Shown: positions 11,814 to 39,135 of the stretch, in pieces
Position numbering within the stretch: position 1 is the first letter of the stretch
Layout of the letters: every line of letters starts with the position of its first letter
Source: Candidatus Latescibacterota bacterium
GTDB taxonomy: Bacteria; Latescibacterota; UBA2968; GCA-2709665
Reading direction: 5' to 3'
Length of the DNA stretch: 64,000 nt
NCBI GenBank assembly: GCA_965203805.1
Contig: OZ241917.1
Coordinates: forward strand, 3,744,001-3,808,000
The notes under the pieces: model-generated
Told to the model about the DNA's origin: nothing
Database searches by the model: none
Seen by the model: only the letters and a program-made list of their open reading frames with translations
Position numbers and translations under genes: made by a program

Positions 11814-11834
11814 TTTATTTCAAATTTAGGTTAA

Positions 11835-11905
11835 ACACCAAATCGCCCGTGTTCTTGCGGGTATATCCAAGTTCATGTTGCTTAATTTTGTCGAATCTAA
11901 GTTAG
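11835..11905 (+). repeat. 71-bp IS1380/MITE-like right-end remnant, copy 1
   Basis: Aligns without gaps to 20174-20244 (13 mismatches by eye). Ends ...GTCGAATCTAAG|TTAG. Confidence 0.7.
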
Positions 11906-18991: not shown

Positions 18992-20149
18992 GTACTTAAT
19001 TGGTTAAATTAGAGTATTTTTCTTCAAGGGCTTTGGGTCGGACTTTTGTGGATTTCCACTCGAAGGGATGTGCGTTCTCGTTGTAGGCGTCAATGAAGTG
19101 ATTGATGGCGGTGCGTAAGTCTCGAATCGAGGTGAAGGAGCCGCCTTTGAGCGCGCTTCTCCACAGGATGCTGAACCAGATTTCGATCTGGTTGAGCCAG
19201 GATGCGTGGGTGGGGGTGTAGTAGAAGTGGACATTGGGATGGCGTGGCAGCCAGCGGTCGTTCTTGGGCTTGTGGGTGTTCAGGTTGTCGAGGATGATGT
19301 GGAGTTCCTGATCGGGGTATTCGGCGACAAGTTCGTTCATAAAGCTCAGAAACTGGCGTCGTTTGCGCCTTTTGTAATGCCCGGCCTTGACGAGGCCGGT
19401 GGCGACGTTCAATGCAGCGAATAAGGTGGTGGTGCCGTTTCTCTTGTATTCGTGGTTAAAGCCGGTCACGGCCTTGCCGTTGGGCAGCTTGAGCCATCCC
19501 TGTACCCTTTCCAACGCCTGGATCGCGGGCTTTTCATCGACGCACAAGACAATCGCATTTTTGGGAGGTTCCAGATACAACCCCACGATGGCTGCGGCCT
19601 TGGTGGCAAATTCCGGATCGGTGCTGATACACCAGCTGCGCCTTCTGGCCAGCGAAATGCCGTGGTTGCGCAAGACCTGCCAGACATAGTGGACAGAAAT
19701 TCCCAGCTTGTCGGCCAACAACGGACCGGTCCAGTTTCCATAGCCCTTGGGCGGGGCATCGTCCAAGGCCTCCAAAATGCGCTTTTCGCTTGACTGGTCG
19801 TACTTGGCAGGCTTGCCCGATCTCGCCTTGTCCTGCAACCCGGAAAGACCCGACTCGTGAAAGCGCCGGCGCCACTTGCACACCGTGGCCTCGCGCGTTC
19901 CCAGATCCCTGGCGATGTCCCGGTTCGCATCGCCCTGGGACGCTGAAAGAACAATCCGGGCGCGCAGCACATAACGGTGTTGCGTCTTGCCTGAACGTGT
20001 CCAACTCAACAGCGTCTCTTTTTCCTCGTCACGCAACGTGATCAACACGGCGGGGCGGCTCATAGGCGGTCTCCTCTCCACAGTTGAACTGAGATCGATT
20101 CCCTATGAGCACAAGATATATTATTTCGCTTTTTTTGTCAAGTAAGTAC
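18992..20149 (-). mobile_element. IS630-family insertion sequence
   Basis: TIRs GTACTTA.../...TAAGTAC with a TA duplication (18990-91, 20150-51) and an internal TTGACA-N17-TATCTT promoter. Confidence 0.92.
18996..20081 (-). CDS. IS630 transposase (intact)
   Basis: N-terminal HTH, CVDEK, HEYKRNGT, ILDNLNTHK, WLNQIEIWF. Confidence 0.95.
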   Translation of the reverse strand: MERRPPMSRPAVLITLRDEEKETLLSWTRSGKTQHRYVLRARIVLSASQGDANRDIARDLGTREATVCKWRRRFHESGLSGLQDKARSGKPAKYDQSSEKRILEALDDAPPKGYGNWTGPLLADKLGISVHYVWQVLRNHGISLARRRSWCISTDPEFATKAAAIVGLYLEPPKNAIVLCVDEKPAIQALERVQGWLKLPNGKAVTGFNHEYKRNGTTTLFAALNVATGLVKAGHYKRRKRRQFLSFMNELVAEYPDQELHIILDNLNTHKPKNDRWLPRHPNVHFYYTPTHASWLNQIEIWFSILWRSALKGGSFTSIRDLRTAINHFIDAYNENAHPFEWKSTKVRPKALEEKYSNLTN

Positions 20150-20244: not shown

Positions 20245-20727
20245 ACCGTTGAACGGGCGCGCGCTTTTACTTCCACCTATTCGGTTTCGGCTGAGAACAG
20301 TGAAGCAATTCGGCAAGTTGCGCCACGATTTCTGCTGCCTTCACCCCGTTGTGGCCAAACGTCGTTACAGATGCATTTTACATTCTTCGCCGCTCCTTCG
20401 CACTCTACATGTTTCTCTAATTTCAAAGGAGAAATTGCCTCATTGGTATAGGTGCAGAGGGATACCATGGTTACGTGAAAGACTGGGTAGCTAAGAAGGT
20501 CGGGCGCTATCTTATGTGCGGGCGCAAGGGTAAGGTTTTTGGAGGGAAGATGTGGAGTAGGCCATGGCCGTACAAAATACTTGGACATTTTTCGGAATAT
20601 TGGGTTTACTACCACGCGCCGAAAGGCACCGCGGTATAATGGGTCCCATGCCCTTGAGAGGAAATTAAGGGGAAAGACCAGTGTGTTCAAACCGTGCGAT
20701 AGGTATTATTTGGCGGGAGTTGAAACC

Positions 20728-22113
20728 GTGACCAGAAGAGCCGGACAAAGGCACCTCGAGAAAAAGGCGGTATCGTCGCCGGACCCTACCGACGAACGAG
20801 ATGTGGTAATACTTGATCGGAAGGACGACAACAGCAAGGATTGGGAAGGCAGACTCGCGGTCCTTTCGGAGGAGCGACTATTGACGCACACACAAAGTAC
20901 TTGGGAAAGGCTCTGGCGTTTCTACAGATATTGTCGTGAGGCGTCACCATGGTACACTCGACATTTACCGCGATTCGACGATGCGGCTCAGATGATGTCG
21001 CGCTGGGCAGAGGTTCCGGTGCTAACAAAGGACGATCTCAGAGTTCATGGCTATGAGTTGCTAACGAACGCAGCAGGGAGCTCAATCGAAGTCAGTACAA
21101 GCGGAAGCACAGGGGTGCCCCTGTCATCCGTATGGACTCAGGACGAGTACAACCGATGTAGTATGGAAGTTTGGAAAGCGCGCATCGCTTTAGGCGCTCG
21201 GCTAAGTCATCCGGTCGTTTATTTCCTAGGGCTTCCGATGGAAGCGCCGACAGATTCAGCTGGGAAGATATGCAAGGTCGGCAGGACATATACACTGAGT
21301 CGAGTCTTTACTAAAGAAGCTATACGTCAATACACGGAGTTTCTCAATACCTTTAGTGGTGAGGTAGTTATCCATGGCTCACCAACTACTCTATATCGGT
21401 TCACTTGCCGGATTAAGGAGGAAGGGTATCCGATGCCCAGATTTAGCTGTGTCGAATTGAATGGTGAAATGTGTGAACCACATGAACTATTGGGAATTCA
21501 AGCTAGTCTCCGATCTCCTATGCTGAACAATTACGGTGCGCGCGAGATGTGGCCGATTGGCCTCACCTGTGCATGGGGGACGATGCATGTCTGCGACAAG
21601 CTAGTTTATGTTGAGGCTCCTGATAAGGAAGTGCTGATAACTTCAATCGTCAAGCGCCGCCAGCCTCTGATTAAATACTCAATTGGTGACCTTGCTGACG
21701 TCAGTTGGGCCGAATGCAATTGCGGAAAGCGTGGGATAGTAATTACTCGGCTTGTGGGTAGGAAAAACGACTTCCTATTTAGGGAAAAGGGTGTGAAGGA
21801 GCATTGGGCGCTCCTCTGTAATGCTATCAACAGTTGCATATTGGATAACCCAAATTTAGTTAGAGAATACGGAGTTCATCAGAAGAAGAACTATGACATT
21901 GAGATCAGTATCGTCAAAGGCGAATACTTCGATCCGAGAATCTGTCAAATCCTCTCGGACCGTGCTGGAGAAGTCTATCCGAAGTTGAAGTTTACTGTTA
22001 TAGTACGGGAGGCTATCGAGACCCACCGCAGTGGAAAGAAAATCTACTTCAAGTGCGATGTTGATGAAAGTGTGTTGCCTATCCCGCAAAGTGAGATTAT
22101 CAGTGCGGTTTAG
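20728..22113 (+). CDS. phenylacetate-CoA ligase (PaaK/CapK)-like adenylate-forming ligase
   Basis: VPVLTKDDLR, TSGSTG P-loop, NNYGARE, KYSIGDLA, GRKND, SGK. Likely start is GTG 20728 after GGGAG (ORF track starts at 20539). Confidence 0.85.
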   Translation: MTRRAGQRHLEKKAVSSPDPTDERDVVILDRKDDNSKDWEGRLAVLSEERLLTHTQSTWERLWRFYRYCREASPWYTRHLPRFDDAAQMMSRWAEVPVLTKDDLRVHGYELLTNAAGSSIEVSTSGSTGVPLSSVWTQDEYNRCSMEVWKARIALGARLSHPVVYFLGLPMEAPTDSAGKICKVGRTYTLSRVFTKEAIRQYTEFLNTFSGEVVIHGSPTTLYRFTCRIKEEGYPMPRFSCVELNGEMCEPHELLGIQASLRSPMLNNYGAREMWPIGLTCAWGTMHVCDKLVYVEAPDKEVLITSIVKRRQPLIKYSIGDLADVSWAECNCGKRGIVITRLVGRKNDFLFREKGVKEHWALLCNAINSCILDNPNLVREYGVHQKKNYDIEISIVKGEYFDPRICQILSDRAGEVYPKLKFTVIVREAIETHRSGKKIYFKCDVDESVLPIPQSEIISAV

Positions 22114-22562: not shown

Positions 22563-23949
22563 GAGATATTGTCAAATGTTGTGGATGGCGGCGAGCGTAT
22601 CCTGATGGATCAGGCGGCGGCTTTGACGTCTCCATCCTCGAATTCGACGCCCTGGACCACGAGTTCAATGAGCTTGTGACTGTGTAATCGTTGCCAGTGT
22701 TTCTGGGCTTGGTCGGCCAGTTTGTAAACCATCATCAACGTGGCGTTTCGAGAGCCGCATCCTTTGGTCTGGCGCGTGCGGTGGCGAACGGTGCTGAAAG
22801 TGGATTCAATGGGATTGGTGGACCGGAGGTGTCGCCAGTGAGCGGCCGGGAAATCGTAAAAGGTGAACAGCACGTCCTTGTCTTTTTCCAGGCACGCACA
22901 CGCTTTGGGGTATTTGGCTTCATAAAGGGACAGAAAGTCCTCGTAAGCGGCCAGGGCATCCTCTCTGGTGGGTGAGAGATACATCTCGTGGAGGCGCCCT
23001 TTGGCCTGCGCCTGGACCGTTTTGGGGAGGTTATCCAGCACGTTGGCACTCTTGTGCACCCAGCAGCGCTGATGGCTTGTCTCGGGGAAGACTTCCTCCA
23101 GCGCGGCCCAGAAACCCAGGCCGCCATCGCCAATGGCCAGGGCAGGCGCTTCTTTCAACCCTCTTCTTTTCAGGTCCCTGAGCACACCTTCCCAGGACAG
23201 CTTGCTTTCACGATGTCCATCCTCGATCGCCAACAGTTCCTTACGGCCATCCTTCGTGGCACCGATGATGACTAAGACGCAGGGCCGGTCCGGTTCCAGT
23301 CGCACCTGGAAATAGATGCCATCGGCCCAGACATACACGTAGTGTTTATCTGAAAGATCCCGTTGTTGCCACGCTCGATATTCTTCGTCCCAGATCTGCT
23401 TGAGCCGAACGATGTTGGCCGGTGACAGCCCCACCGCATTCTCACCCAAAATCGCAGAAAGTGCCTCGGGGAAGGACGACGTCGAGACCCCCTTGAGATA
23501 CAGTGCCGGAATCAACGCATCGATAGAGGGTGCCCGACGCATATATCTCGGCAAAATGGCTGAGCTGAATGTCTTTCCCTTACGCCTGTCGTGCACACGC
23601 GGCTGCCGGATCTCAAGGTGTCCTACGCCCGTGATCAGTTCCCGTGGCTTGTGAGATCCATTCCTGACCACTTGCCGGTGACCACGTTCATCCTTCTCCG
23701 CTTGCAACCCTTCAACGTAGGCGTCCACTTCAAACTCCAACGCGGCTTGCAGCATCCGCCTGGCCCCAACACGAATCAGATCTTCCAGGCTCAACGTCAC
23801 TTCATCTTTGACTATCGTCTCAACTTCGGAGGCCGTATATTGTCTCATCGAGCGTATCCTTCCTCCCTCGTCTGAGGGATCTCGGGTTAATAGTGATACT
23901 ATAGGATACGCTCTTTTTTTACCTCATCCACAACTTTTGAATATAACTC
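22563..23949 (-). mobile_element. IS256-family insertion sequence
   Basis: 25-bp imperfect TIRs GAGATATTGTCAAATGTTGTGGATG / CATCCACAACTTTTGAATATAACTC and a 9-bp TSD CTCTCCGTC (22554-62, 23950-58). Confidence 0.95.
22610..23848 (-). CDS. IS256 (mutator-type) transposase (intact)
   Basis: VWADGIY, AIGDGGLGF, QRCWVHK, STNPIES. Confidence 0.96.
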   Translation of the reverse strand: MRQYTASEVETIVKDEVTLSLEDLIRVGARRMLQAALEFEVDAYVEGLQAEKDERGHRQVVRNGSHKPRELITGVGHLEIRQPRVHDRRKGKTFSSAILPRYMRRAPSIDALIPALYLKGVSTSSFPEALSAILGENAVGLSPANIVRLKQIWDEEYRAWQQRDLSDKHYVYVWADGIYFQVRLEPDRPCVLVIIGATKDGRKELLAIEDGHRESKLSWEGVLRDLKRRGLKEAPALAIGDGGLGFWAALEEVFPETSHQRCWVHKSANVLDNLPKTVQAQAKGRLHEMYLSPTREDALAAYEDFLSLYEAKYPKACACLEKDKDVLFTFYDFPAAHWRHLRSTNPIESTFSTVRHRTRQTKGCGSRNATLMMVYKLADQAQKHWQRLHSHKLIELVVQGVEFEDGDVKAAA

Positions 23950-24514: not shown

Positions 24515-24805
24515 GTGAGTAACGAAACAACGTCGCTAGTTGTCGAGAGGGTCAACACGATACTTGCCGCTAACAATCAAGCAGTCCTTCCAACTAACTT
24601 GGCAGGTGATGACACTCTTCTGAAGTCGGAGAAATACTCCCTCGGATTGATCGGATTGGACTCACAAGCGATTATGGAGCTGTTCTTAGTCATTGAACAA
24701 GACTTTAATGTGGATTTGGTAGACGATGATCTTTCCTATGAGGCAGTAGGCACTCTGGGCCACCTCGTTGATTATGTCGACCGAAAATTGGAGAATGTCA
24801 CATGA
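24515..24805 (+). CDS. stand-alone acyl/aminoacyl carrier protein
   Basis: Small acidic protein with the GLDS phosphopantetheine site. AAGGAG SD; overlaps the next gene (ATGA). Confidence 0.88.
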   Translation: MSNETTSLVVERVNTILAANNQAVLPTNLAGDDTLLKSEKYSLGLIGLDSQAIMELFLVIEQDFNVDLVDDDLSYEAVGTLGHLVDYVDRKLENVT

Positions 24806-25680
24806 GAATCGGGTTAGCACAGATGCAAATAGGAGATAGTCTGACAGGAAACGCGGAAAAAGTGGTGTCCTTCATAAGAGAAGCAAGCTCGGACAAGGTT
24901 GACTTTATCGCATTTCCAGAGACTTGCTTGACCGGTTACCTTGGAATTTCACTGAACTGCCTGTCTTCTGTAAAAATGAAGAGTCTGTATAAGGCTCTCA
25001 ACGAAATACAGGATCTCTGCCGGGAATTATGCATCAGTGTCGCAACCGGTCAATATTTCAGGAGATGTGGGCGGTGGTATAACAACGCCGTAGTATTCGG
25101 AAGTGATGGGAAGTGTAAAACTAGCTACGACAAGAATCACCTTATTGACCGGGATTGTTTCGATGTAGTAGCTGGGAGAGAACCGCCTGAAGTGTTTCAA
25201 CTGCAAAAAGCTAGGGTGTCGATTGGGATTTGCCATGATATTCGGTATCCCGAGCCGTGGCGATGGGCCGCAATAAAAGGAAGCCAGATACAAGCCTGTT
25301 TGTTCTACGGTGTCCGATCCGAAAGCGATTTGCGAGATCAAGAGATATATGATGCGCATTTGTCCACACGTGCGGCAGAAAACGGCGTATTCTTGGTCGC
25401 TACCAATGTAGCGGCTAAGGAGCAAATGGTTCGATCGCAGATACGCGATCCCGAAGGCCGTCTGCTGGTCCGCGCGAACTCCTGGAAGGAAGAACTCTTA
25501 GTAAGCGACATTGAACCCGATCTAGGAGGCCAAGGTTGGGTAGAGCGGCGTCGCGGGGATCTGTATACACTAAAGCTTCAACCGAAGGAACGAGGAAGTG
25601 TGTTTGATGAGGGATTCTGGGAACGTCCGTACTATATAATTGAGCATGATCGAAGATTGATGGGGGATCAGGAAACTTGA
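24802..25680 (+). CDS. carbon-nitrogen hydrolase (nitrilase superfamily)
   Basis: E-K-C triad in FPE, YDK and ICHDIRYPE; also RAAEN. Confidence 0.92.
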   Translation: MRIGLAQMQIGDSLTGNAEKVVSFIREASSDKVDFIAFPETCLTGYLGISLNCLSSVKMKSLYKALNEIQDLCRELCISVATGQYFRRCGRWYNNAVVFGSDGKCKTSYDKNHLIDRDCFDVVAGREPPEVFQLQKARVSIGICHDIRYPEPWRWAAIKGSQIQACLFYGVRSESDLRDQEIYDAHLSTRAAENGVFLVATNVAAKEQMVRSQIRDPEGRLLVRANSWKEELLVSDIEPDLGGQGWVERRRGDLYTLKLQPKERGSVFDEGFWERPYYIIEHDRRLMGDQET

Positions 25681-25730: not shown

Positions 25731-26570
25731 ATGGCACTGCATGATATTGTGGTCGGTGACTTCGGACGCCAAGGGACATTAAGGTATTTGATTGAATTCT
25801 CCAAAGCGGAAAGAGAGCTAATTTCAGCCCAATTGGAAAATGGCGAGTTTCTGGATGAGTACAGGCGCATTCGTTATACGGTGATTGGGAGACTTAGAGA
25901 GATAAAGCACAAGTTGGTTGGTCGCTGCAATGGACAGCTTGACCGTAGCGTCTTAATAGGTGTCAGACACGGTGTTTCTCCTCACGAGATTTTAACTCCA
26001 CTTCTTGCGACCGTGCTGCCGTTCATCCGTCTTGTAGCCAATTCGAAGACTGAACGGATACGGCTAATATTGCCGTGCAATACGCTGGGAAGGCTAGCAT
26101 CGACTCTACAATCGATCTTTGATGACCGCCACGATCGAAAAGAATTGGAAATGGCCATGGGCCAAAATGCAAAGGCCGACTTGGAATGGGTGTCAAGGTG
26201 GCTACGTGAAGGAGGGGATATTGAAGTTCCTGGTATACCAGAGACTGTGGTTGGAGAGCTAGCATGTCCAAGCACTCGGACGCTTTCTATTCTCGGGTCA
26301 CAAGAGAGCTTGTTTGCTTACAAACAAGCGGTTCAAAAACAACGCCTTTCGATTGCCGTTCAATCGTATCTGCCAAATGGGGTGCAAAGTTTCGAGCGAT
26401 TACTTATCGGAGTCATTAACGGCCGAATCTCCCTAAAGGGAATAGATCCGCCCGCCAAAAATGAAGTCCGCATTTGCGGATGTACCGATTTGAAAGTGCC
26501 GATTATAGCAGATTCGATCAGGATCTTTGCTAGACACCTAGTCACCCACGCGTATAAGTATCTTTCGTAA
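25731..26570 (+). CDS. divergent aspartate/glutamate racemase-like protein
   Basis: Two-cysteine motifs LPCNT and GCTDL; the rest of the sequence is divergent. Confidence 0.65.
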   Translation: MALHDIVVGDFGRQGTLRYLIEFSKAERELISAQLENGEFLDEYRRIRYTVIGRLREIKHKLVGRCNGQLDRSVLIGVRHGVSPHEILTPLLATVLPFIRLVANSKTERIRLILPCNTLGRLASTLQSIFDDRHDRKELEMAMGQNAKADLEWVSRWLREGGDIEVPGIPETVVGELACPSTRTLSILGSQESLFAYKQAVQKQRLSIAVQSYLPNGVQSFERLLIGVINGRISLKGIDPPAKNEVRICGCTDLKVPIIADSIRIFARHLVTHAYKYLS

Positions 26571-26578
26571 GGTTCCCG

Positions 26579-29353
26579 ATGAAAATTGAGATCCCGTTAA
26601 TATTCGACAATGAGTCACATACCTGTTTAGAGGATCTGGGAGCATCGATAGTAAACTGGTACGGACGTCCATTTCAGCTTATGTATGCAGAATCGTGGGG
26701 GTTTGCTTTTGATACCGCTACCATCACTTCTCGGAAATTGCTTGGCGAGAGACTTAATCCGAACATAGGTAACCAGTGGAGTCTCCTGGAGCGACACCAG
26801 GGCATAAGGCTAGATAAACGTGAACATGAACTAGCTTTTGACAGGTACGTGTGCGACCAAGTTACAGACGGTACACCTGTTATCTTTAAACTCGCGAGTA
26901 AGTTGAATGAAAAATGCTCGTGGGGGATTGCTATCGGATTTGACAGAAAAAGGGGGAGCATTCACTATCTGACTCAGAACAGAGAATCGAGCTTCCGCCG
27001 GTCGACAAAGGCTGGTTCAATTCGACTTGATGAGTTTGCTAACAGAACAGTGTATACACTCACGCCCACGGTCCTTAGCTCCGACGAGATACTTAACGTT
27101 AATTTCCAACAGCTTGTTATTGCAGGTGTTATGCGTTCAATGTGTGGTGGAATTGAGCCGACAAGCTATCAAAGTAAACTGAAGTTTGCTGACGCGATTG
27201 AGCGTTCATTGGATATTGAAGCTGAGCTAAGAGGGTATTCTGAACTGTTTTGGCCGCCCCTCCTGTACAATCTTATGCGTGTCAGCCATGGCAGGTCACA
27301 GTTCTCGCGTTTTCTAGACTTCACTCATGAGTTGTTTCCGCTGCCTGGACTAAGGGATGGTTCGTCAGAAATCAAACGGCTAGGTCGCGAGTGGTGGTTG
27401 ATCCGTAGCCTTCTTATCAAATTGGCAATGGCGCCAAAAGATAGTAAGCTTGTTTCTCATATTGCGAATCGAATTCGGAGTTTGGCAAGTGAGGAGGCGA
27501 ATGTAGCCAAGAGGTTACAGCAGATCGACTGGATTTGCTTAGGCAAACTCGAATCTTCCAAAGCTAATTTACAGATAGCCAGTGTAGTTGCAAGGTCAAA
27601 GAACGAGCCGCCTTACCCTAATCCAAGCCACCCGCGACCCAGGTTGGCATTTTCGCCTGCTCTTCCATTGAACGGTACTGAATTTCGACTATGCGGGATT
27701 TGGGCTGAAGTGTTGGGAGTGGATGTTATTGGCACAATGGATGATTTCTTTGAACTTGGGGGCGATTCGTTATCGGCCGTACGAGTATTGGGGCGTGTAT
27801 GTGAGGAATTTGGTGTGAAGCTCTCGTTGCGGCGGCTGTTTGAGAGTCCGACGGTATCTGGGTTGGCGATTCTCATTGACGCGGAGGGTGGTTTGCAGGG
27901 AAAGGTCGGAAATTCGTCCATGATACCTCGGGCCAATAGAAGCGAGGATGCACTGCCGCTTTCGTTTGCACAGCAGCGGCTGTGGTTTTTTGATCAACTG
28001 GAGCCAGGAAATGTCTTCTATAATATACCGTCTGCGGTTCGTCTACGTGGTCCACTTTGTATGACTGCTCTTTGGTGGAGTGTAAATGAGATAATCCGGC
28101 GACATGAGTCTCTGCGCACAACCTTTGCGAGGCGTGAAGGACAGCCTATACAAGTAGTGGCAGATGAGTTACAGCTGCCGTTGAGGGTGATAGACTTACG
28201 AGGTCTTCCAGATGCAGAACAGCGCGCTCAACAATTAGCCCGCAGGGAGGCTGAGCGTGCTTTTTCACTGGAATGCGGTCCGTTGTTAAGGATCGTGTTA
28301 TTGTGGATAGGTGACGAGGATTACCTGCTGGTACGGATAACACACCACATAATCTCTGATGGTTGGTCTGAGAGTATTTTTCTTAAAGAGTTGGCTGTTT
28401 TCTACAATGGTCGTGTAAGTGGTCGGCATACAACTCTTCCAGCGCTACCCATCCAATATGTTGATTTCTCGGTTTGGCAGCGACAACAGTTGCAGGGTGA
28501 AATGCTGGCGAAACAACAAGCATATTGGAATGAGCAACTGCGAGATAGCCCACCTATTTTAAAGCTACCTATTGATCGTCCCAGACCAGAGATACAATCG
28601 TTTCGAGGTGGTGTATGCTCCCTGAAGTTACCGAAAGAGCAGACCGAAGAACTGAAGAAATTGAGCCGTCAAGAAGGGACGACATTGTTCATGACATTGC
28701 TGACGGCACTCAAGGTTTTGCTGTACAGACTCAGTGGTCAGAGCGATATCTGCGTGGGGACTCCAATTTCCAATCGCACACGCCCTGAAACAGAGGGGAT
28801 CATAGGGCTATTTCTAAACATGCTGCCCTTGCGAACACATGTGCAAGAGGATATGAGCTTTCGCGACCTGCTTAGAACGGTGCAAAAGACTTGCCTAGAT
28901 GCATTCGCAAATAAAGATATCCCATTCGAAATGTTGGTACGCGCCGTATCGGGACGGAACGGCTTAGCGATCAGTCCAATCTTCCAGGTTGTATTCCAGT
29001 TTCAAAATACGCCGAAAGCCCATAAGAGAATTGCTGGCATCGACACGTCTAAAGTGAGGATCATGGCACCAGTGGCAAAATTTGATCTCCTGCTAAACAT
29101 GTGCGAGGAAGATGACGGTGAACTGTTCGGCCTTCTGGAGTATTGCATAGATATATTCAAGCATGACAGCGCACTACGACTGATGCGGCAGCTCAAGAGG
29201 ATAATTGACTTGGTCGCGATTCGACCGGACGATACCCTATTCGATATGTACAGGAATTTCCAGCGTGAAGAGGATGAGAACACGGCAAGAAGTACGAAAA
29301 GATATGAGGAGATTTTGAGGAGTCAGTTGAGGACTCTTGTAAAGCAAGAGTAG
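26579..29353 (+). CDS. NRPS with an N-terminal BtrH-like domain, T domain and terminal LCL-type C domain (no A domain)
   Basis: N-terminal CLEDL...MYAESWGF (BtrH_N-like); T domain FFELGGDSL; C domain LSFAQQRLWF...HHIISDGWS. Confidence 0.88.
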   Translation: MKIEIPLIFDNESHTCLEDLGASIVNWYGRPFQLMYAESWGFAFDTATITSRKLLGERLNPNIGNQWSLLERHQGIRLDKREHELAFDRYVCDQVTDGTPVIFKLASKLNEKCSWGIAIGFDRKRGSIHYLTQNRESSFRRSTKAGSIRLDEFANRTVYTLTPTVLSSDEILNVNFQQLVIAGVMRSMCGGIEPTSYQSKLKFADAIERSLDIEAELRGYSELFWPPLLYNLMRVSHGRSQFSRFLDFTHELFPLPGLRDGSSEIKRLGREWWLIRSLLIKLAMAPKDSKLVSHIANRIRSLASEEANVAKRLQQIDWICLGKLESSKANLQIASVVARSKNEPPYPNPSHPRPRLAFSPALPLNGTEFRLCGIWAEVLGVDVIGTMDDFFELGGDSLSAVRVLGRVCEEFGVKLSLRRLFESPTVSGLAILIDAEGGLQGKVGNSSMIPRANRSEDALPLSFAQQRLWFFDQLEPGNVFYNIPSAVRLRGPLCMTALWWSVNEIIRRHESLRTTFARREGQPIQVVADELQLPLRVIDLRGLPDAEQRAQQLARREAERAFSLECGPLLRIVLLWIGDEDYLLVRITHHIISDGWSESIFLKELAVFYNGRVSGRHTTLPALPIQYVDFSVWQRQQLQGEMLAKQQAYWNEQLRDSPPILKLPIDRPRPEIQSFRGGVCSLKLPKEQTEELKKLSRQEGTTLFMTLLTALKVLLYRLSGQSDICVGTPISNRTRPETEGIIGLFLNMLPLRTHVQEDMSFRDLLRTVQKTCLDAFANKDIPFEMLVRAVSGRNGLAISPIFQVVFQFQNTPKAHKRIAGIDTSKVRIMAPVAKFDLLLNMCEEDDGELFGLLEYCIDIFKHDSALRLMRQLKRIIDLVAIRPDDTLFDMYRNFQREEDENTARSTKRYEEILRSQLRTLVKQE
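27690..28938 (+). repeat. 1249-bp T-C didomain duplication, copy 1
   Basis: Matches 33381-34629. One difference seen (T28014 vs C33705, Val/Ala). Confidence 0.95.
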
Positions 29354-29399: not shown

Positions 29400-30434
29400 A
29401 TGACACTTAAAGGCCCTAGTGATGTGAAACGGAATAGAATTTCGGTGTCTAGTAATGAGCTTGCGGCGATAGGCTACATTGAAAGGGAGAGCATATTACC
29501 TCTCGTTGTACGGGCAAAGTCTCCAGGAGTAGACATCACTCATTGGTACAGTGACAACGCAGTCCTCGTTCGGAACGGTTTAAGCAAATTTGGTGCCGTT
29601 CTGTTCAGAGGATTTGAGATCGAATGTTTGGGAGAATTCCAGAAGTTCGTAGCAGTCTCTTCTGGGGAACTTTTGGAGTACTACGAGCGATCTTCCCCAA
29701 GAAGAAAAATAACAGGGAAAATCTACACTTCCACCGAATATCCGGCAACCCGCCCCATCTTTCTGCATAATGAGAACTCGTACCAACATCAGTTCCCTAG
29801 CAAGATCTATTTTTTCTGTCAATCGCCCCCACAGGCAGGAGGCGAAACTCCGATAGCAGATTGTCGGAGTGTCTACAAATCAATTGATCCAGCGATTCGA
29901 GAGAAATTCATCAATAAAGGTGTAATGTATGTCCGAAATTTCTACAAGGGCTTAAATCCTTCGTGGCAGACGGTCTTTCAGACGCAAGAAAAGTTGGTTG
30001 TTGAGGCGTATTGCCACAATGCCAATATTGCGGTTGAGTGGAAGGCGGATGACAGTCTGCGAATTAGCCAGATCCGTCCCGCCGTCATCGACCATCCTCA
30101 GACCTCTGAGAAGGTATGGTTTAACCACGCGGTCTTCTTTCATGCGTCGTCCGTGGAAGTCTCAGCTCGAACGCAGCTTGGCCAGATATTGAACGAGGAG
30201 GATCTTCCAAGCAACACATTTTACGGAGATGGTTCTATTATTGAGCCATCGGTTGTATCGCGGATACGAAGCATTTACCTGCAGAATAAAGTGTCTTTCA
30301 CTTGGGAGAAGAATGACATCCTGATGCTCGATAATATTAGCGTTGCTCATGGGAGAGAGCCATTTGTTGGGCGTAGGGAGATAATGGTTGCAATGACGGA
30401 GCCTACGAAACACCTCAACGTGAAGGAGGATTAA
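29400..30434 (+). CDS. TauD/TfdA-family Fe(II)/2-oxoglutarate dioxygenase, SyrP-like amino-acid beta-hydroxylase
   Basis: YTSTEYP, HNE, GGETPIAD, WFNH, DN...HGR. Its stop overlaps the NRPS start (TAATG). Confidence 0.92.
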   Translation: MTLKGPSDVKRNRISVSSNELAAIGYIERESILPLVVRAKSPGVDITHWYSDNAVLVRNGLSKFGAVLFRGFEIECLGEFQKFVAVSSGELLEYYERSSPRRKITGKIYTSTEYPATRPIFLHNENSYQHQFPSKIYFFCQSPPQAGGETPIADCRSVYKSIDPAIREKFINKGVMYVRNFYKGLNPSWQTVFQTQEKLVVEAYCHNANIAVEWKADDSLRISQIRPAVIDHPQTSEKVWFNHAVFFHASSVEVSARTQLGQILNEEDLPSNTFYGDGSIIEPSVVSRIRSIYLQNKVSFTWEKNDILMLDNISVAHGREPFVGRREIMVAMTEPTKHLNVKED

Positions 30435-33400
30435 TGAACTCGGACACAATTGTGGGAACTCGACTCTCTCCACAACAGGACCACGTTTGGCGTCTGCAAG
30501 TAGCTGCTTCAGGTCGAATATTTGGTGTACATTGTCTAGTGAATATTCGGGGTGTTTTAGATGGGGAATCTCTGAGGAGTGCCCTATTGTCCGTAGTCGA
30601 GCGACACGAGATCCTTCGGACAGAGTTTCAATTCATTCCTGGCCTGAAGGTACCACTTCAGGTAATACAAGAGACAGTCGATCTATCGTTTAATAAATGT
30701 GACATCAGCCACTTGAGTTCGCTGGCTCAAACTGAAAAGATTGAATCGACATTCTATATGGACAAGCCCAATGTGACGAAGACTGAACAGCGTGAAGTGC
30801 CGACCTTTCAACTGCTGAAGCTCACTAAAAAGGAGCATTTGCTGTCGGTCAACTTACCAGCAATGTGTGCGGACGCAAAGTCATGTGACATTCTGGCGAG
30901 GGAGCTAAGTTGCTTCTACAATCGAGGCATTAGTTCAGAGTGTATTACATCCGACCAACTTCAGTTCGCTGATGTTGGGGAATGGGAGCACAGCGTGTTA
31001 GAATCAGAGGATAGTGAAATTGGGAGAGCGTACTGGCGAGATTGTAAATTGGATAGTTTGCTCAACACGAAGTTGCCAATCCAACGTGAACAAGCCGACA
31101 GTCGCTTGTTTGATCCTCGCGCACTTGAACTTGCGGTTCCGGCTGAATTGCACTCAGCAATTGTAAATGCTTGTCGTAACTGGAGAGTCTCAATTGCTGA
31201 TTTTCTCTTGACGTGCTGGTACGTGTTTCTTTGGCGATTGAACCGGCAGAGTGGTCTGGCCGTCGGTGTCGCTGTGGACGGGCGGAATTATGAAGAGATA
31301 GAAGGATTGGTCGGACCACTTACAAGCTACGTACCGGTGAGAGTCGGCATGTCTAAACACTCGCCGTTCAAGCAGATTCTGGCTACGGTAGCTAAGGCGA
31401 CGAAGGACGCAAGGCGATGGCGAGAGTCCTTCTCATGGCAGGAGAGACTGAGTTCAGCAAACGTCGACGAACCCTACTTTCCATATATTTTCGATTTCTA
31501 CGGCGCCGAACGTGAATATTGCTGCGGTAAGGTCGAGTTCTCTGCTGACGTAATTCAATGGCGAACCGAACGATTCAAACTAAGGTTTTTAGGGCGAATG
31601 CAGAAAAGGTCGTTGCAAATTGGGATCGAGTACGACTCCGCCTGCTTTAGTGAAGAGGATGTTCGATCGCTACGCCGACCGTTAACCGAACTGGTCAAGA
31701 GTTGTCTCGACAGGCCGGATGTTCCCATATCTGCCATTAAACTCGTCGATGATGCGATGCAGTATCATTCAACAATCAATCGGAACGAGAGACCGGCGAA
31801 AAATCTTGAAGAGAAGTGTATTCACCGGCTTTTCCAGTGCCAAGTTCAGAAAGTGTCAGACCGAATTGCAATCGAGTTTGCGGCAGGACACCTGACGTAC
31901 AGCGCCCTTGAAACCCGTGCTAACCAGTTAGCAAATCACCTTCGTAGGCTGGGGGTTGGCCCTGGAGTACAAGTTGGAATACTCATTGAGCGCTCTCCGG
32001 AGATGGTAGTGGGATTGCTCGGAATTCTTAGTGCGGGCGGAGCATATCTACCTTTGGACACTACCTTCCCCAAAGAGCGGCTGGCTTTTGTCCTTAGGAA
32101 TTCGAAAGCGGATATTGTTGTCACCTCCCTGCAGACCGGCAGGCTATTGCCGAAGGATGTGCACAAAGTATTTCTCGATCCAGCCTATCAGTCCATCGCT
32201 TCTGAAAGCGCAGATGCCCCAGAAAGTGGAGTCAGAAGCTCTGATCTCGCCTATACGATCTATACTTCTGGTTCAACTGGTCGTCCAAGGGGAGTCATGG
32301 TTACGCACAAATGTCTTGTGAATTATGTGACTTGGAGCATCAGAGCTTATCGACTCAGCGAAAGGTCTGCAGTTGCGGTGAATTCGCCTCTGGCCTTCGA
32401 CCTTACTGTCACTAGCTTATTAAGCCCTCTGATTGCGGGGGGCAGGCTAGTACTGCTGTCGGAGCAAGACCCCATTGGGGAACTGAAAAATGCCGCTAAA
32501 ATGGGTTTACGATTTGACCTTCTAAAGTTGACTCCTGCACATCTAGATTTGCTTTCGGATCTGGTGTCGCCAAGCGAAGCTAAGGATTTCGCAAAAACCA
32601 TCGTAATTGGAGGAGAGGGCCTTTATGGACGCCATGTCGCCTTCTGGATCCGCAATTCTCCACATACTCGGCTAATCAATGAGTATGGTCCTACTGAGAC
32701 GGTTGTTGGATGCTGTGTCTCAGAGGTTGTTCCTTCGCAACCCCACGAACTTCCTGTGCCAATTGGCATGCCAATAAAAAACGCTCGGATGTATGTGTTA
32801 GATGACGAACTGCAGCCCTTGCCGGTAAATGTGCCTGGTGAAATATACATTGGGGGGCAGGTGGTTAGTAGCGGATATTGCAACGACTCTCGAGGCACAG
32901 CAGACAGGTTCATCCCAGACCCATTCAACCCAATTTCTGGATCGAGAATGTACCGTAGTGGTGACCTCGGCCGCATTCGTGCGGACGGCCAGATCGAATT
33001 TCTTGGCAGGTTGGACTGGCAGATCAAGGTCCGTGGATATCGAATTGAACTCGGGGAGATTGAAGCAACCCTCAATAACCACCCAAACGTGAGTAGTTCG
33101 GTTGTGATCAATTGCTGTAGTGGTGACAAAATTGTTCAGGCACGCCTAGTAGCGTATTTTATGCCAATAGTAGGCGCAGACGTTGATCAAGAGACATTGT
33201 TGTCATTCGCTCGTAGTTGGCTGCCCGAATATATGGTGCCATCCGACGTCATATTGGTGCGTGAGTGGCCGCTAACAAGCAATGGCAAGATAGACCGCAG
33301 TGCACTGACAACAATGCACCCCGGTATCCGAGCCTCTAAATCAAGATACGTCGCCCCAACTACAAATGCTGAGCGATCCATATGCGGGATTTGGGCTGAA

Positions 33401-36400
33401 GTGTTGGGAGTGGATGTTATTGGCACAATGGATGATTTCTTTGAACTTGGGGGCGATTCGTTATCGGCCGTACGAGTATTGGGGCGTGTATGTGAGGAAT
33501 TTGGTGTGAAGCTCTCGTTGCGGCGGCTGTTTGAGAGTCCGACGGTATCTGGGTTGGCGATTCTCATTGACGCGGAGGGTGGTTTGCAGGGAAAGGTCGG
33601 AAATTCGTCCATGATACCTCGGGCCAATAGAAGCGAGGATGCACTGCCGCTTTCGTTTGCACAGCAGCGGCTGTGGTTTTTTGATCAACTGGAGCCAGGA
33701 AATGCCTTCTATAATATACCGTCTGCGGTTCGTCTACGTGGTCCACTTTGTATGACTGCTCTTTGGTGGAGTGTAAATGAGATAATCCGGCGACATGAGT
33801 CTCTGCGCACAACCTTTGCGAGGCGTGAAGGACAGCCTATACAAGTAGTGGCAGATGAGTTACAGCTGCCGTTGAGGGTGATAGACTTACGAGGTCTTCC
33901 AGATGCAGAACAGCGCGCTCAACAATTAGCCCGCAGGGAGGCTGAGCGTGCTTTTTCACTGGAATGCGGTCCGTTGTTAAGGATCGTGTTATTGTGGATA
34001 GGTGACGAGGATTACCTGCTGGTACGGATAACACACCACATAATCTCTGATGGTTGGTCTGAGAGTATTTTTCTTAAAGAGTTGGCTGTTTTCTACAATG
34101 GTCGTGTAAGTGGTCGGCATACAACTCTTCCAGCGCTACCCATCCAATATGTTGATTTCTCGGTTTGGCAGCGACAACAGTTGCAGGGTGAAATGCTGGC
34201 GAAACAACAAGCATATTGGAATGAGCAACTGCGAGATAGCCCACCTATTTTAAAGCTACCTATTGATCGTCCCAGACCAGAGATACAATCGTTTCGAGGT
34301 GGTGTATGCTCCCTGAAGTTACCGAAAGAGCAGACCGAAGAACTGAAGAAATTGAGCCGTCAAGAAGGGACGACATTGTTCATGACATTGCTGACGGCAC
34401 TCAAGGTTTTGCTGTACAGACTCAGTGGTCAGAGCGATATCTGCGTGGGGACTCCAATTTCCAATCGCACACGCCCTGAAACAGAGGGGATCATAGGGCT
34501 ATTTCTAAACATGCTGCCCTTGCGAACACATGTGCAAGAGGATATGAGCTTTCGCGACCTGCTTAGAACGGTGCAAAAGACTTGCCTAGATGCATTCGCA
34601 AATAAAGATATCCCATTCGAAATGTTGGTTGACACCTCAGATGTTGAAAGGAACCTAAGCAATACCCCGCTATTTCAAGTGACTTTCAACATGCTAAATT
34701 TCGAGTCGACTGATGGCAACTTCCAAGCGTTGGAATCTGAAAGGCTTTCAATCTATGGAGATTTGGTTTCGAAATTTGATCTCACACTCTATGCCCGAGG
34801 GGGAGATCGTCTAGAGTTTGCCTGGGTTTACAATTCAGAACTGTTTCAGGAGGAAACAGTGCGTATGCTGTTAAGCCAGCTACAAGCATTACTGACGCAA
34901 GTTTTGTGTGATCCTAACCAGATCATCTCACGCATACACTTGGCTTTCAGGGAACATGAGGGAGAACTTGGGCAAAGTAACAGCAAAATTTGGCCAGATC
35001 GAAAGCGTATTCACTTTGGAAGGGAAGATACTGAGCAGCTGATTACAGCTTGCTTCGCTAAACAAGCTAAACGAAAAAGGAATCACATAGCCGTAGCCTC
35101 TAAAGGCACCCAGTGGACCTATGGATCCCTGGATAAGCGGGCAAACACTATCGCGTCGATGATTCTGCAGCGATGCGGATCGGACTCTGGTCGGATTGGG
35201 CTAATCATCTCACATGATGCGCCGATGGTGGCGAGTATTTTGGGTGTCCTGAAAGCAGGTAAGACCTACGTACCGCTAAACCCGCTGCACCCGTTCGAAC
35301 GTCTTTCAAAAATGGCTTCTCACGCGCGACTTGACGCAGTCGTCACCGACAGCGCTCACGAAGAAATGTCGCGGATGGCAGTAGACGCACAAACATGCAT
35401 CATAAATGTCGAGGACTTGCGGACGAACTCTCTACCGGTAATGTGTAACGGATCACCAGATGAGTTAGCATACATTCTCTATACATCGGGATCAACGGGA
35501 GAGCCAAAGGGAGTGATGCAAAGTCACCGAAATGTGCTGCGCCATATTAGAAACTATACAAACGCGCTGAATATTGCCGATACGGATCGTCTCACACTTC
35601 TATCTTCATACAGTTTTGATGCATCAGTGATGGACATTTTCGGAGCACTTATGAACGGTGCGAGATTACATCTTTTCGATCTAAGGGAGATAGGATTCAG
35701 TCAGTTACCGGAGCAATTCCGGAGGGCTGGAATAACTATCTATCACTCAACACCAACAGTTTATAGACGCTTAATATACCACCTCGGTGACCACAGGCAG
35801 CTTTCCAAAATACGACTGATTGTACTAGGCGGAGAACAGGCAAACAGAAGTGATTTCGACTCATACAAGATGCATTTTTCGAGTAATTGCCTATTCGTAA
35901 ACGGCTTCGGTCCGACGGAATCAACGCTTGCTCTGCAGAGTATCATAAACCAGAACATGACATTTGATGAGAACCATATTTCGGTGGGCTTTCCAGTTGA
36001 GGATATGGATGTAGCGATCGTTGGGGATGATATGGAAGAGCTAGGAGCGGGAGCGACTGGAGAGATAATCCTCAAGAGTAGTGCGTTGGCACTGGGCTAT
36101 TGGGCTAATCCCGATGAGACCCAAAGAGTCTTCCGACAAGACCCGACAAACCCAGATCACCGCCAGTATCGCACTGGAGACCTGGGACGTCGCTTGCCGG
36201 ATGGCAGCATTGAGTTCAGGGGACGGAGAGATCGCCAGGTTAAAGTCGATGGTCACCGGGTCGAACTGGGCGAAGTAGAGCTAAACCTCAGGTCCCTGGA
36301 TGGAATAGACGAAGCGGCCGTGGTCGTAACCAATAGTAGCGAGGGGACGCGTCTGATTGCCTACATTGTAGTCAAAGAGTCAGCACAACTCTCAGAAAGA

Positions 36401-36778
36401 GAGTACCGCAAAATCCTGGCTCGAAAACTGCCTCGCTATATGTTGCCCTCACGCTTTGTTCGATTGCCGACCTTACCACTTAATCCTAATGGCAAGATAG
36501 ACTACGCTTTGCTGCCTTTACAAGAGACCACTGGCCAAAAACAGATACATAAAGTGAGCGCTCCTAGGAACAATAATGAGTGTCAATTAGCCGATATCTG
36601 GTGCGACCTCCTTGAATTAGATCAGGTTGGTATTGATGACGATTTCTTCGACCTTGGTGGGGACTCTCTGTTGTTAATCCAGGTTTATGACCGGTTAAGG
36701 GAAGTTTTGGACGATCAGATAATGGTAATTGACCTATTCAGGTATCCAACAATACGATCATTTTTCGACGCAATCTAA
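30434..36778 (+). CDS. bimodular NRPS: I(C-like interface)-A-T-C-A-T, with no TE, R or E domain
   Basis: The first C-like domain has LPAMCAD in place of HHxxxDG. A-domain cores YTSGSTG, YGPTE, YRSGD/YRTGD and NGK are present twice. Two GGDS T domains. Manual A1 code DLTKVGEVGK (Asn-type); A2 code DAMHVGGLAK (uncertain). Confidence 0.95.
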   Translation: MNSDTIVGTRLSPQQDHVWRLQVAASGRIFGVHCLVNIRGVLDGESLRSALLSVVERHEILRTEFQFIPGLKVPLQVIQETVDLSFNKCDISHLSSLAQTEKIESTFYMDKPNVTKTEQREVPTFQLLKLTKKEHLLSVNLPAMCADAKSCDILARELSCFYNRGISSECITSDQLQFADVGEWEHSVLESEDSEIGRAYWRDCKLDSLLNTKLPIQREQADSRLFDPRALELAVPAELHSAIVNACRNWRVSIADFLLTCWYVFLWRLNRQSGLAVGVAVDGRNYEEIEGLVGPLTSYVPVRVGMSKHSPFKQILATVAKATKDARRWRESFSWQERLSSANVDEPYFPYIFDFYGAEREYCCGKVEFSADVIQWRTERFKLRFLGRMQKRSLQIGIEYDSACFSEEDVRSLRRPLTELVKSCLDRPDVPISAIKLVDDAMQYHSTINRNERPAKNLEEKCIHRLFQCQVQKVSDRIAIEFAAGHLTYSALETRANQLANHLRRLGVGPGVQVGILIERSPEMVVGLLGILSAGGAYLPLDTTFPKERLAFVLRNSKADIVVTSLQTGRLLPKDVHKVFLDPAYQSIASESADAPESGVRSSDLAYTIYTSGSTGRPRGVMVTHKCLVNYVTWSIRAYRLSERSAVAVNSPLAFDLTVTSLLSPLIAGGRLVLLSEQDPIGELKNAAKMGLRFDLLKLTPAHLDLLSDLVSPSEAKDFAKTIVIGGEGLYGRHVAFWIRNSPHTRLINEYGPTETVVGCCVSEVVPSQPHELPVPIGMPIKNARMYVLDDELQPLPVNVPGEIYIGGQVVSSGYCNDSRGTADRFIPDPFNPISGSRMYRSGDLGRIRADGQIEFLGRLDWQIKVRGYRIELGEIEATLNNHPNVSSSVVINCCSGDKIVQARLVAYFMPIVGADVDQETLLSFARSWLPEYMVPSDVILVREWPLTSNGKIDRSALTTMHPGIRASKSRYVAPTTNAERSICGIWAEVLGVDVIGTMDDFFELGGDSLSAVRVLGRVCEEFGVKLSLRRLFESPTVSGLAILIDAEGGLQGKVGNSSMIPRANRSEDALPLSFAQQRLWFFDQLEPGNAFYNIPSAVRLRGPLCMTALWWSVNEIIRRHESLRTTFARREGQPIQVVADELQLPLRVIDLRGLPDAEQRAQQLARREAERAFSLECGPLLRIVLLWIGDEDYLLVRITHHIISDGWSESIFLKELAVFYNGRVSGRHTTLPALPIQYVDFSVWQRQQLQGEMLAKQQAYWNEQLRDSPPILKLPIDRPRPEIQSFRGGVCSLKLPKEQTEELKKLSRQEGTTLFMTLLTALKVLLYRLSGQSDICVGTPISNRTRPETEGIIGLFLNMLPLRTHVQEDMSFRDLLRTVQKTCLDAFANKDIPFEMLVDTSDVERNLSNTPLFQVTFNMLNFESTDGNFQALESERLSIYGDLVSKFDLTLYARGGDRLEFAWVYNSELFQEETVRMLLSQLQALLTQVLCDPNQIISRIHLAFREHEGELGQSNSKIWPDRKRIHFGREDTEQLITACFAKQAKRKRNHIAVASKGTQWTYGSLDKRANTIASMILQRCGSDSGRIGLIISHDAPMVASILGVLKAGKTYVPLNPLHPFERLSKMASHARLDAVVTDSAHEEMSRMAVDAQTCIINVEDLRTNSLPVMCNGSPDELAYILYTSGSTGEPKGVMQSHRNVLRHIRNYTNALNIADTDRLTLLSSYSFDASVMDIFGALMNGARLHLFDLREIGFSQLPEQFRRAGITIYHSTPTVYRRLIYHLGDHRQLSKIRLIVLGGEQANRSDFDSYKMHFSSNCLFVNGFGPTESTLALQSIINQNMTFDENHISVGFPVEDMDVAIVGDDMEELGAGATGEIILKSSALALGYWANPDETQRVFRQDPTNPDHRQYRTGDLGRRLPDGSIEFRGRRDRQVKVDGHRVELGEVELNLRSLDGIDEAAVVVTNSSEGTRLIAYIVVKESAQLSEREYRKILARKLPRYMLPSRFVRLPTLPLNPNGKIDYALLPLQETTGQKQIHKVSAPRNNNECQLADIWCDLLELDQVGIDDDFFDLGGDSLLLIQVYDRLREVLDDQIMVIDLFRYPTIRSFFDAI
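33381..34629 (+). repeat. 1249-bp T-C didomain duplication, copy 2
   Basis: Near-identical to 27690-28938 at an offset of 5691. Confidence 0.95.
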
Positions 36779-38597: not shown

Positions 38598-38622
38598 CCT
38601 GCCTGTTCGGCAGACAGGCAGG
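38598..38622. repeat. CCTGCCTGT...ACAGGCAGG palindromic element
   Basis: Perfect 9-bp arms directly after the DUF2332 stop codon. Confidence 0.75.
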
Positions 38623-38794
38623 ATGCTCGCCAGTGAGATCAGTAGCAACATTAGCGGTGACGAAGGCAACGAAGTCTCCAATATTGAGGGTCGCGATCTG
38701 ACTCCCTGAGTATGCAGGACGTAACGTGAGCGAACGCTGCGTAGGCTTACCAGTGACTTTGTGGTATGCAGGCTTTGATAATCGTAATACGTGA

Positions 38795-39009
38795 GCCCAC
38801 CTCTTCACCCTGTTCGCCTTGGCCAACTTCCATCTCGTCCCGCGGGAAATGACCACCTCCTAAGGAAAAGTCCGTCCGGACGGGGCACAGCACCCCGGAC
38901 GGGACGCATCTCTGCCTCGAATAACCCCTACAACCATCCTAAATCACGTCCTTTTCAACACACTCATTTCGCACCGCGTCTTCGTATAATCGCGTTGATC
39001 AGAGGTTCC
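38795..39009 (+). mobile_element. IS5-family 3' remnant
   Basis: AHLFTLFALANF transposase C-terminal motif, followed by the IS5-like right end TTGATCAGAGGTTCC. Confidence 0.65.
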
Positions 39010-39135
39010 TTCATTGTTTCGCCCACGAATGACAGAAAGTACGATTTGCCAGACGGAATGCGAGTCACCTAGACCGTTACCTTTAGTAGATAGTTCACGC
39101 GGCTTCTTCTTGCACGCAAATTAGGTCGTTTTCCA

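Follow-up and report, generated by a model that had tools for sequence, protein, structure and literature searches.

Papain-fold ligases that depend on carrier proteins, such as CtaG, CcbD, BtrH and AsbE, have been recognised as a class only recently. We describe here a relative of these enzymes at the head of a protein of 924 amino acids (aa), which continues with a thiolation (T) and a condensation (C) domain and is encoded by an open frame on the + strand (26579-29353) of a stretch of 64,000 nucleotides (nt) from a Candidatus Latescibacterota bacterium (contig OZ241917.1 of assembly GCA_965203805.1, positions 3,744,001 to 3,808,000; "the window" in the following, coordinates without a locus name being counted from its first base). 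The head domain, denoted X, is part of a natural, conserved branch of the class which has discarded the catalytic His and Asp and kept the Cys, and which is now found at the N-terminus of X-T-C or X-T-E proteins, E standing for an epimerisation-type domain. On evidence that is entirely computational as regards its role, this branch (clade B) appears to be a rare, conserved and triad-degenerate group of candidate loading domains, carried by uncultured Latescibacterota-type genomes.

The aminoacyl shuttles SyrC and CmaE move thioester cargo between T domains by way of a cysteine, as in the relay proposed below, but they are stand-alone proteins of alpha/beta-hydrolase fold with a full catalytic triad and are not homologous to the X domain. 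CtaG, the papain-like ligase of closthioamide synthesis that depends on a peptidyl carrier protein (PCP), works by a ping-pong mechanism in which the acyl group passes between carriers as acyl-S-Cys (from CtaH to CtaG to CtaE), with aminolysis as a later step (PMC12865890). In its H128A variant, Cys11 still accepts the acyl group of a thioester donor, and the resulting stable thioester is seen in crystal structures, while the D144N variant is not loaded and has a rearranged pocket and a disordered active site (PMC12865890). CtaG shares with X the bipartite fold and the N-terminal Cys nucleophile; unlike X it stands alone, has the full triad Cys11-His128-Asp144 and ends in aminolysis, and the two are only ~11-13% identical. 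CcbD/LmbD, the condensation enzyme of lincosamide synthesis (PDB 7YN1, 9DKR), also has the fold of X (Foldseek 4e-6) and receives its acyl donor from a PCP, a complex with which has been solved according to the titles of the PDB entries. It too is a stand-alone enzyme, with the amine of an amino sugar as acceptor and with 13-14% identity to X, which lacks the His and Asp. BtrH, the aminoglycoside acyltransferase of butirosin synthesis that uses an acyl carrier protein (ACP), belongs to the same superfamily as X by transitive homology, but acts on a free amine acceptor, whereas X has an incomplete triad and no match to the BtrH_N profile. The methylolanthanin protein MllDE, in which a CtaG-like transacylase with conserved triad is joined to a carrier protein (PMC12865890), is the sole published case found of this fold fused to a carrier domain, and the accessible part of its description mentions no E or C domain. 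In the accessible part of the literature searched, supplementary enzyme lists aside, no T-E or T-C protein headed by a BtrH-like domain is described.

Domain organisation and fold of the X-T-C protein

The X domain (aa 1-340; 26579..27598, this and all following features of the gene being on the + strand) consists of a papain-like N-lobe and a helical C-lobe, as judged from phmmer, AlphaFold2 (AF2), Foldseek and Pfam matches of its homologues. A linker with an HPRP motif (aa 341-370; 27599..27688), defined by alignment, leads to the T domain (27686..27871). The latter has both the profile and the GGxS serine of a thiolation domain of nonribosomal peptide synthetases (NRPS): a PP-binding match at aa 370-431 (Pfam 3.3e-18, 66 bits) and the string FFELGGDSL with S397 (27767-27769). 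Since HPRP resembles the [FY]xRP found ahead of T in orthologues, the linker looks native. The C domain (27944..29242; Condensation at aa 456-888, Pfam 1.5e-103) is of the ordinary condensation type by profile, by its HHxxxDG motif (HHIISDG at aa 589; 28343-28363) and by its resemblance to C rather than E domains. Its top PDB matches are the ordinary C domains of Txo1/2 and TycC (2JGP) at 1e-79 to 1e-89, and its matches to the TycA and GrsA entries, which we take to be E-domain structures, are weak (~1e-13). Pfam finds no adenylation (A) domain in the 924 aa.

The family of X is not evident from profile searches of aa 1-360, in which BtrH_N (PF14399) gives no match at E<=10 and DUF4872 (PF16169) a sub-threshold one (E 0.017, 15.3 bits vs a cutoff of 28). 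The window encodes a free BtrH-like enzyme further downstream (P0002; 44240..45382, + strand, with a likely start at Met44, position 44369), which itself matches BtrH_N (Pfam 6.5e-13), DUF4872 (3e-9) and Peptidase_C39_2, with each triad residue (Cys, His, Asp) in its proper column. Compared with this free copy by BLASTP, X is near noise, the best E of 0.002 falling in the helical part. An exhaustive phmmer search of 1.84 billion representatives with the X domain gave 392 matches at E<=1e-3, 141 at <=1e-10 and 7 at <=1e-30, and the matches P0009, P0010, P0021 and P0047 carry PF14399, with or without PF16169. It is because these relatives carry the two profiles, and not by pairwise BLASTP, that X can be regarded as homologous to the BtrH family. 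The resemblance of X to the free copy that had been perceived in an earlier note on this DNA thus stands as family kinship, in phmmer and in fold, but not as direct pairwise similarity.

The same note had placed a domain of BtrH type in the N-terminal ~340 aa, where a loading domain would sit in a protein without an A domain, and structure prediction bears this out. The AF2 model of aa 1-360 (71-row alignment) has a mean predicted local distance difference test score (pLDDT) of 88.2 and a predicted template modelling score (pTM) of 0.87. Searched against the PDB with Foldseek, it matches AziU3 (2.4e-7), CtaG (~1e-6; 9QUZ and variants) and CcbD (4e-6) with probability 1.0 over ~350 columns and template modelling (TM) scores of 0.5-0.6, with isolated C39 peptidase domains ranking below them. 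The model and these matches therefore confirm a papain/BtrH fold, whose absence would have spoken against the prediction, and X has the bipartite architecture of the BtrH/CtaG/CcbD transacylases.

Active site, architectures and distribution of clade B

Cys16 (codon 26624..26626) lies in the nucleophile column of the family, which holds Cys in 140 of 153 alignment rows, and the predicted helix 16-27 begins with it, so that the Cys of X opens the first core helix, as expected of the nucleophile. The remainder of the triad is gone. Most of the family, referred to as clade A, has the consensus PW...HxxHxxLxxGxD...CxD, and the matching columns of the free copy read H, G.D and D. The catalytic His column of clade A and of the free copy (HxxLxxGxD) is Ser114 in X (codon 26918..26920), the segment from P100 to D122 being devoid of His, and the column of the triad Asp is Thr132, where clade B has an insertion of ~9 residues. 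The strings HTCLEDL (aa 14-20) and CSWGIAIGFD (aa 113-122), from which the earlier note had deduced retention of the Cys and loss of His and Asp, are both present in the translation, and the deduction was correct. The loss is real, yet it is no peculiarity of the window copy, but a trait of a whole monophyletic clade: it extends to P0003, P0004, P0005, P0006, P0008, P0012, P0007 and P0013, and to all clade-B rows of the alignment displayed. A tree rooted on P0002 and built from 154 domain rows by a quick method (FastTree) unites the 12 assigned members of clade B and the fragment P0020 in a single branch (13 rows) with a Shimodaira-Hasegawa (SH)-like support of 100.

The Cys of clade B has been conserved under constraint. 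It stands in a [SA]RxCxED motif in 10/10 clade-B proteins that include the N-terminus, at an identity of only 27-36% to the window X domain; the CxED part is conserved in clade A too. Arg234 is present in 10/10 clade-B rows, as against 5% of clade-A rows. A substitute His was looked for within clade B, and H73/H74, H129 and H237 are not conserved across it. For two orthologue pairs, the ratio of non-synonymous to synonymous substitution rates (dN/dS) is 0.31 and 0.33 in the N-domain vs 0.24 and 0.23 in the rest of the protein.

X-T-C is not the usual architecture of clade B. All nine other members with a downstream region are X-T-E proteins (P0003, from G107; P0004; P0005, from G041; P0006; P0008; P0012; and genes of G097, G098 and G106), and the window protein is the only X-T-C. 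The motif HGR[ED]...[ST]RTVG is present in 9/9 of them and G[IV]G[YF] in all except the truncated P0012; we take both to be core motifs of epimerisation domains. No such E-type motif occurs in the window protein, which has the C5-type IGLFLNM in their place. The C-like parts encoded at three orthologous loci (L001, L022, L023) have PvdL, bacitracin synthase 3, tyrocidine synthases 1 and 2 and gramicidin S synthase 1 as best PDB matches (1e-28 to 1e-65), with ordinary C domains trailing at 1e-8 to 1e-17; presumably 2XHG and 5ISW are structures of E domains. Of the starter architecture proposed in the earlier note, the N-terminal fusion without an A domain is upheld, while X-T-C turns out not to be the norm of the clade, which is X-T-E.

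Among the best 150 of the 392 family matches there are seven proteins in which X is followed by T and by a domain of the C superfamily (the query included), one X-A-T protein (P0080), in which the His and Asp columns are filled, and ten T-X proteins, the remainder being stand-alone proteins of ~320 or ~525 aa. The T-X forms are C-terminal in NRPS or polyketide synthase (PKS) proteins (P0021, P0047, P0059, P0062, P0079, P0090, P0094, P0096, P0125 and P0136). These megasynthase-fused domains of clade A are the nearest sequence relatives of X (E 1e-11 to 1e-21) and like X reside in assembly lines; unlike X, those aligned keep Cys, His and Asp, and the C-terminal forms follow a T domain in the manner of off-loading domains. 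No published characterisation of clade-A T-X and X-A-T proteins was found. As a separate observation, P0009, P0011, P0014-P0016 and ~60 other clade-A proteins (500-620 aa) have a C-terminal extension of ~200 aa which starts with a conserved F.DL..Y.NN.GFG and has no Pfam match in P0009; the same motif also follows the domain in the fused P0021, P0047, P0059, P0062, P0096 and P0136.

Clade B is sparsely distributed. Strong full-length matches were found in 6 of 168 genomes of the phylum (G000, G041, G097, G098, G106 and G107), all as open frames of 898-935 aa. Its gene is absent from 14/14 genomes of the same genus, which suggests that the X domain was acquired horizontally. A scan of genome contigs retrieved a single locus of clade B (L001), along with five distant ones from Bacillota, and a scan of metagenomes gave only two distant loci (L007 and L008, 24-25% identity) and added no clade-B context.

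Clade-B proteins usually adjoin a free carrier protein. In four genomes from another family of the phylum (G097, G098, G106 and G107), the X-T-E gene belongs to a cassette (L001:4144-12703; L023:4445-12381; L024:7795-15792; L025:5770-12534) with genes for an Rce1-like protein, an ABC exporter, a subtilase-DUF1611 fusion and a free carrier protein, the Rce1-like and ABC exporter genes having been inspected in some of these loci. The subtilase is of the Peptidase_S8 family and the Rce1-like protein is a CAAX protease. Among the genes examined in the four cassettes, none encodes an A domain. In 4/5 orthologous loci (L001, L023, L024 and L025) the gene immediately before X-T-E is that of the free carrier protein, and no such gene was found at L022. 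A free enzyme like P0002 was found in one of the five other carrier genomes (G041), far from its X-T-E gene; the query used gave no such match in the remaining four, whose completeness is 91-93%.

A proposed cysteine-only thioester relay and its alternatives

We propose, as a reading that is quite possible but short of probable, that the protein is the A-less starter of a small NRPS line and its X domain a cysteine-only thioester relay from a free ACP to the in-cis T. A ligase would load an acid onto the free ACP of the window (24515..24805, + strand; 96 aa, Ser50 in GLDS, found by Pfam); Cys16 would take over the acyl group by thiol-thioester exchange; X, which has no His to activate an amine, would then hand it to the phosphopantetheine thiol of its own T, the relay replacing adenylation; and the in-cis C would condense it with an amino acid on T1 of the NRPS encoded downstream. 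In the wider family, such a relay would feed the T-E pair. The candidate for the loading of the ACP is an adenylate-forming ligase of 524 aa resembling PaaK and F390 synthetase (20539..22113, + strand; NCBIfam matches from 2.8e-19 down, all below cutoffs), the only adenylating enzyme other than the NRPS in the genomic island that contains these genes. The NRPS itself (30434..36778, + strand; 2114 aa, C*-A1-T1-C2-A2-T2 by Pfam, motif scan and PDB search) has no thioesterase domain. In its first C domain (30434-31840) 'PA' replaces the HH of HHxxxDG ('LPAMCADA'), and matches of this domain to PDB C domains are weak (~1e-20), those of the X-T-C condensation domain reaching 1e-89. It is because this first C is histidine-less that the in-cis C may be thought to serve the NRPS, and both the operon order and the histidine-less C1 are compatible with an initiation-module role of X-T-C.

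The behaviour of CtaG H128A, which still loads, suggests by analogy that a Cys without its His would be suited to thiol-thioester exchange and poorly to aminolysis or hydrolysis. Together with a carrier protein upstream, an in-chain T after X and the conserved Cys, this favours a relay. Genomic context, namely the adjacent carrier at four of the five orthologous loci and the window ACP, a weak homologue of the carrier proteins upstream of X-T-E (tblastn ~1e-4, 28-31% identity), suggests that the acyl donor of X may be a carrier protein. More tentatively still, clade B as a whole may represent an undescribed class of NRPS loading domain, a papain-fold Cys-only transthiolase that would pass cargo from a free carrier to an assembly-line T in place of adenylation, the loss of His having turned a transacylase into a pure carrier-to-carrier relay. 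If true, a thioester relay would let a non-ribosomal line start in a new manner, with no adenylation domain, and would be a compact building block with which engineered pathways could redirect cargo from one carrier protein to another. The window also offers a natural experiment, since the same kind of head is followed in it by a C domain copied from the NRPS next door, and in other genomes by an E-like one.

Several points weigh against a relay. The contacts of X with the ACP and with T are hypothetical. By analogy with CtaG D144N, which is not loaded, loss of the Asp could have crippled the pocket of X, and a stand-alone ligase could load the T domain directly, leaving X without a catalytic role. 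The window ACP is two genes away from X-T-C, and no carrier protein was found within 20 kb of the X-T-E gene of G041. The acceptor specificity of the in-cis C is uncertain: over 417 residues this very recent recombinant does not differ from C2, whereas the two A domains of the NRPS, A1 and A2, share only 28% identity. To judge from their E domains, the orthologues handle an alpha-amino-acyl or peptidyl cargo, yet no A domain is seen among the genes examined in their cassettes. Finally, the window X domain is the longest terminal branch of its clade (1.47) and deviates from three clade-B consensus residues.

The alternative that fares best, though we consider it somewhat unlikely, is that X is a pseudo-enzyme which serves as a docking site or scaffold for the free carrier protein or another partner in trans, with the Cys retained as a structural residue at the start of the core helix. 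Such a role would agree with the lack of His and Asp in every clade-B row and with the effect of D144N, which alone abolishes loading of CtaG (PMC12865890). The dN/dS of the N-domain, somewhat above that of the T-E part (0.31-0.33 vs 0.23-0.24), points in the same direction, and since CxED is also kept in clade A it may be partly structural. Against this stand the Cys itself, unfailing in 10/10 complete N-termini that have diverged to 27-36% identity, and the invariant, clade-specific Arg234, which suggests a site remodelled rather than abandoned. One form of the docking idea, in which X would be the partner of the free BtrH-like enzyme, had been put forward in the earlier note and finds little support, given that a P0002-like gene was found, with the query used, in a single one of the other five genomes and is remote from X-T-E there.

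The relation of the window gene to the rest of clade B is complicated by a repeat. A tract of 1249 nt that runs from the first helix of T (CGIWAEVLG) to inside the C domain (aa 371-787; 27690..28938, + strand) recurs in the NRPS from T1 to C2 (aa 983-1399; 33381..34629, + strand) with a single mismatch, at 28014. A T-C part nearly identical to T1-C2 of the NRPS, in a clade of X-T-E proteins, indicates that X-T-C is a local recombinant of the X-T-E family. The last 137 aa of the protein, beyond the repeat, are of C type and only ~22% identical to the tail of C2, and a C-type domain must therefore have predated the latest conversion. The simplest history would be that a gene of the form X-linker-T-(C-superfamily) was already there, and that its T-C was homogenised with T1-C2 of the NRPS by recent gene conversion. 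It is improbable, in our view, that this recent recombinant, its T-E replaced by or converted to the T-C of the NRPS, no longer works like its family and is heading to decay. The uniqueness of X-T-C among ten clade-B proteins with a downstream region would fit decay, as would the fresh repeat tract, the long branch of X, the absence of the clade from same-genus genomes, and an island that contains three transposase genes and has 46-53% GC against ~60% in its flanks. The 924-codon frame is intact, however, with Cys16, GGDS and HHIISDG all in place, the C-type tail is older than the conversion, and the histidine-less C1 of the NRPS gives an extra C domain a plausible job. A strain of ~99% identity, sampled in an independent coral metagenome (run X1, depth 3-7), carries parts of the gene; of the five substitutions it shows across aa 1-370 (X and linker), three are synonymous, too few for a test.

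Quite improbable, too, is that X is an active enzyme with another reaction on the cargo of its own T or of a free carrier protein. The fold is not restricted to transacylation, as its top Foldseek match (AziU3, 2.4e-7) illustrates: AziU3/U2 is functionally an aziridine synthase that acts by sulfate displacement (PMC12559475). There are tailoring genes around X-T-C, for a carbon-nitrogen hydrolase, a racemase-like protein and a TauD dioxygenase. Identity of X to AziU3 is only 10%, however, CtaG and CcbD score almost as well, and the nearest relatives, in clade A, have a full triad and directly follow T like off-loading transacylases; nor does the sequence name a candidate reaction.

The repeat also bears on the assembly, as the X-T boundary coincides with its left end. 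Three sequencing runs of one study (X2-X4), possibly from the source sample of the genome and hence not independent of the assembly, give a unitig of 3799 nt that begins ahead of the X domain, spans it and ends 30 nt inside the repeat, a separate unitig for the repeat at 1.4-2.5x the flank depth, and a middle unitig of 4502 nt that overlaps the repeat end on one side and the repeat start on the other. With two direct copies and each unique segment used once, A-R-B-R-C is the only linear path, and misassembly of the X-T fusion is unlikely. In run X1, the contig from the X side ends at 27681, none bridges 27690 from that side, and parts of the stretch are without cover, which at a depth of 3-7 is no sign of absence; on another contig (2415 nt) the NRPS-side flank (APTTNAERSI...) is followed by the repeat and the tail of X-T-C, with the base of copy 2 at 28014. 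A walk through a collapsed repeat at low depth would give such a contig, as would a different arrangement in that strain, and it neither confirms nor contradicts the join. That misassembly through the repeat created the fusion, a prospect raised in the earlier note, is hardly credible despite the X1 contigs and the position of the boundary, given the single linear path through the repeat edge and its depth, the conservation of X-linker-T in nine other proteins, an assembled genome that is a single contig of 5.87 Mb, and the agreement of the 3-7x X1 contig with a collapsed repeat.

Genes around X-T-C

The X-T-C gene lies in an island at ~8-46 kb of the window. Its genes encode, in order, an MbtH-like protein, a DDE transposase, two ABC exporters, a radical-SAM protein, an HMGL-like synthase, a second transposase, the PaaK/F390-like ligase, a Mutator transposase and the ACP, followed by the carbon-nitrogen hydrolase, a protein of 279 aa, X-T-C, the TauD dioxygenase, the NRPS and, further on, the free BtrH-like enzyme. 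The three transposase genes interspersed with the biosynthetic genes are at 10313-11905, 18996-20081 (- strand) and 22610-23848 (- strand). From the ACP to the NRPS, all genes are on one strand with small gaps or overlaps, and the ACP is the only match in the whole 64 kb to the carrier proteins that precede X-T-E in the orthologous loci.

The gene for the carbon-nitrogen hydrolase, of the nitrilase superfamily (24802..25680, + strand; Pfam 1.3e-31), overlaps the stop codon of the ACP gene with its start. The next gene (25731..26570, + strand) ends 8 nt before the start of X-T-C and encodes the 279-aa protein, which has the Cys motifs PCNTLG and ACTDLS and no Pfam or NCBIfam match. It is a distant member of the Asp/Glu racemase superfamily, as its profile matches the aspartate racemase 2ZSK in the PDB at 1.8e-4 with an alignment through the second Cys motif; an Atlas look-up gave a score of 0.79 and serves as a lead only. 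This racemase-like gene is thus situated directly upstream of the one clade member without a fused E-like domain. A racemase-like protein next to a carbon-nitrogen hydrolase is reminiscent of the enzymes of the hydantoin route to D-amino acids.

Downstream of X-T-C, the dioxygenase of the TauD/TfdA family (29400..30434, + strand; Pfam 4.5e-42) is followed by the NRPS, and genes for DUF2332 and DUF5916/CBM9 proteins (37386-41667) separate the latter from the gene of the free BtrH-like enzyme. The MbtH-like protein near the other end of the island (9355-9960) is 201 aa long, ~140 of them without a domain assignment, its MbtH domain comprising aa 9-57 only.

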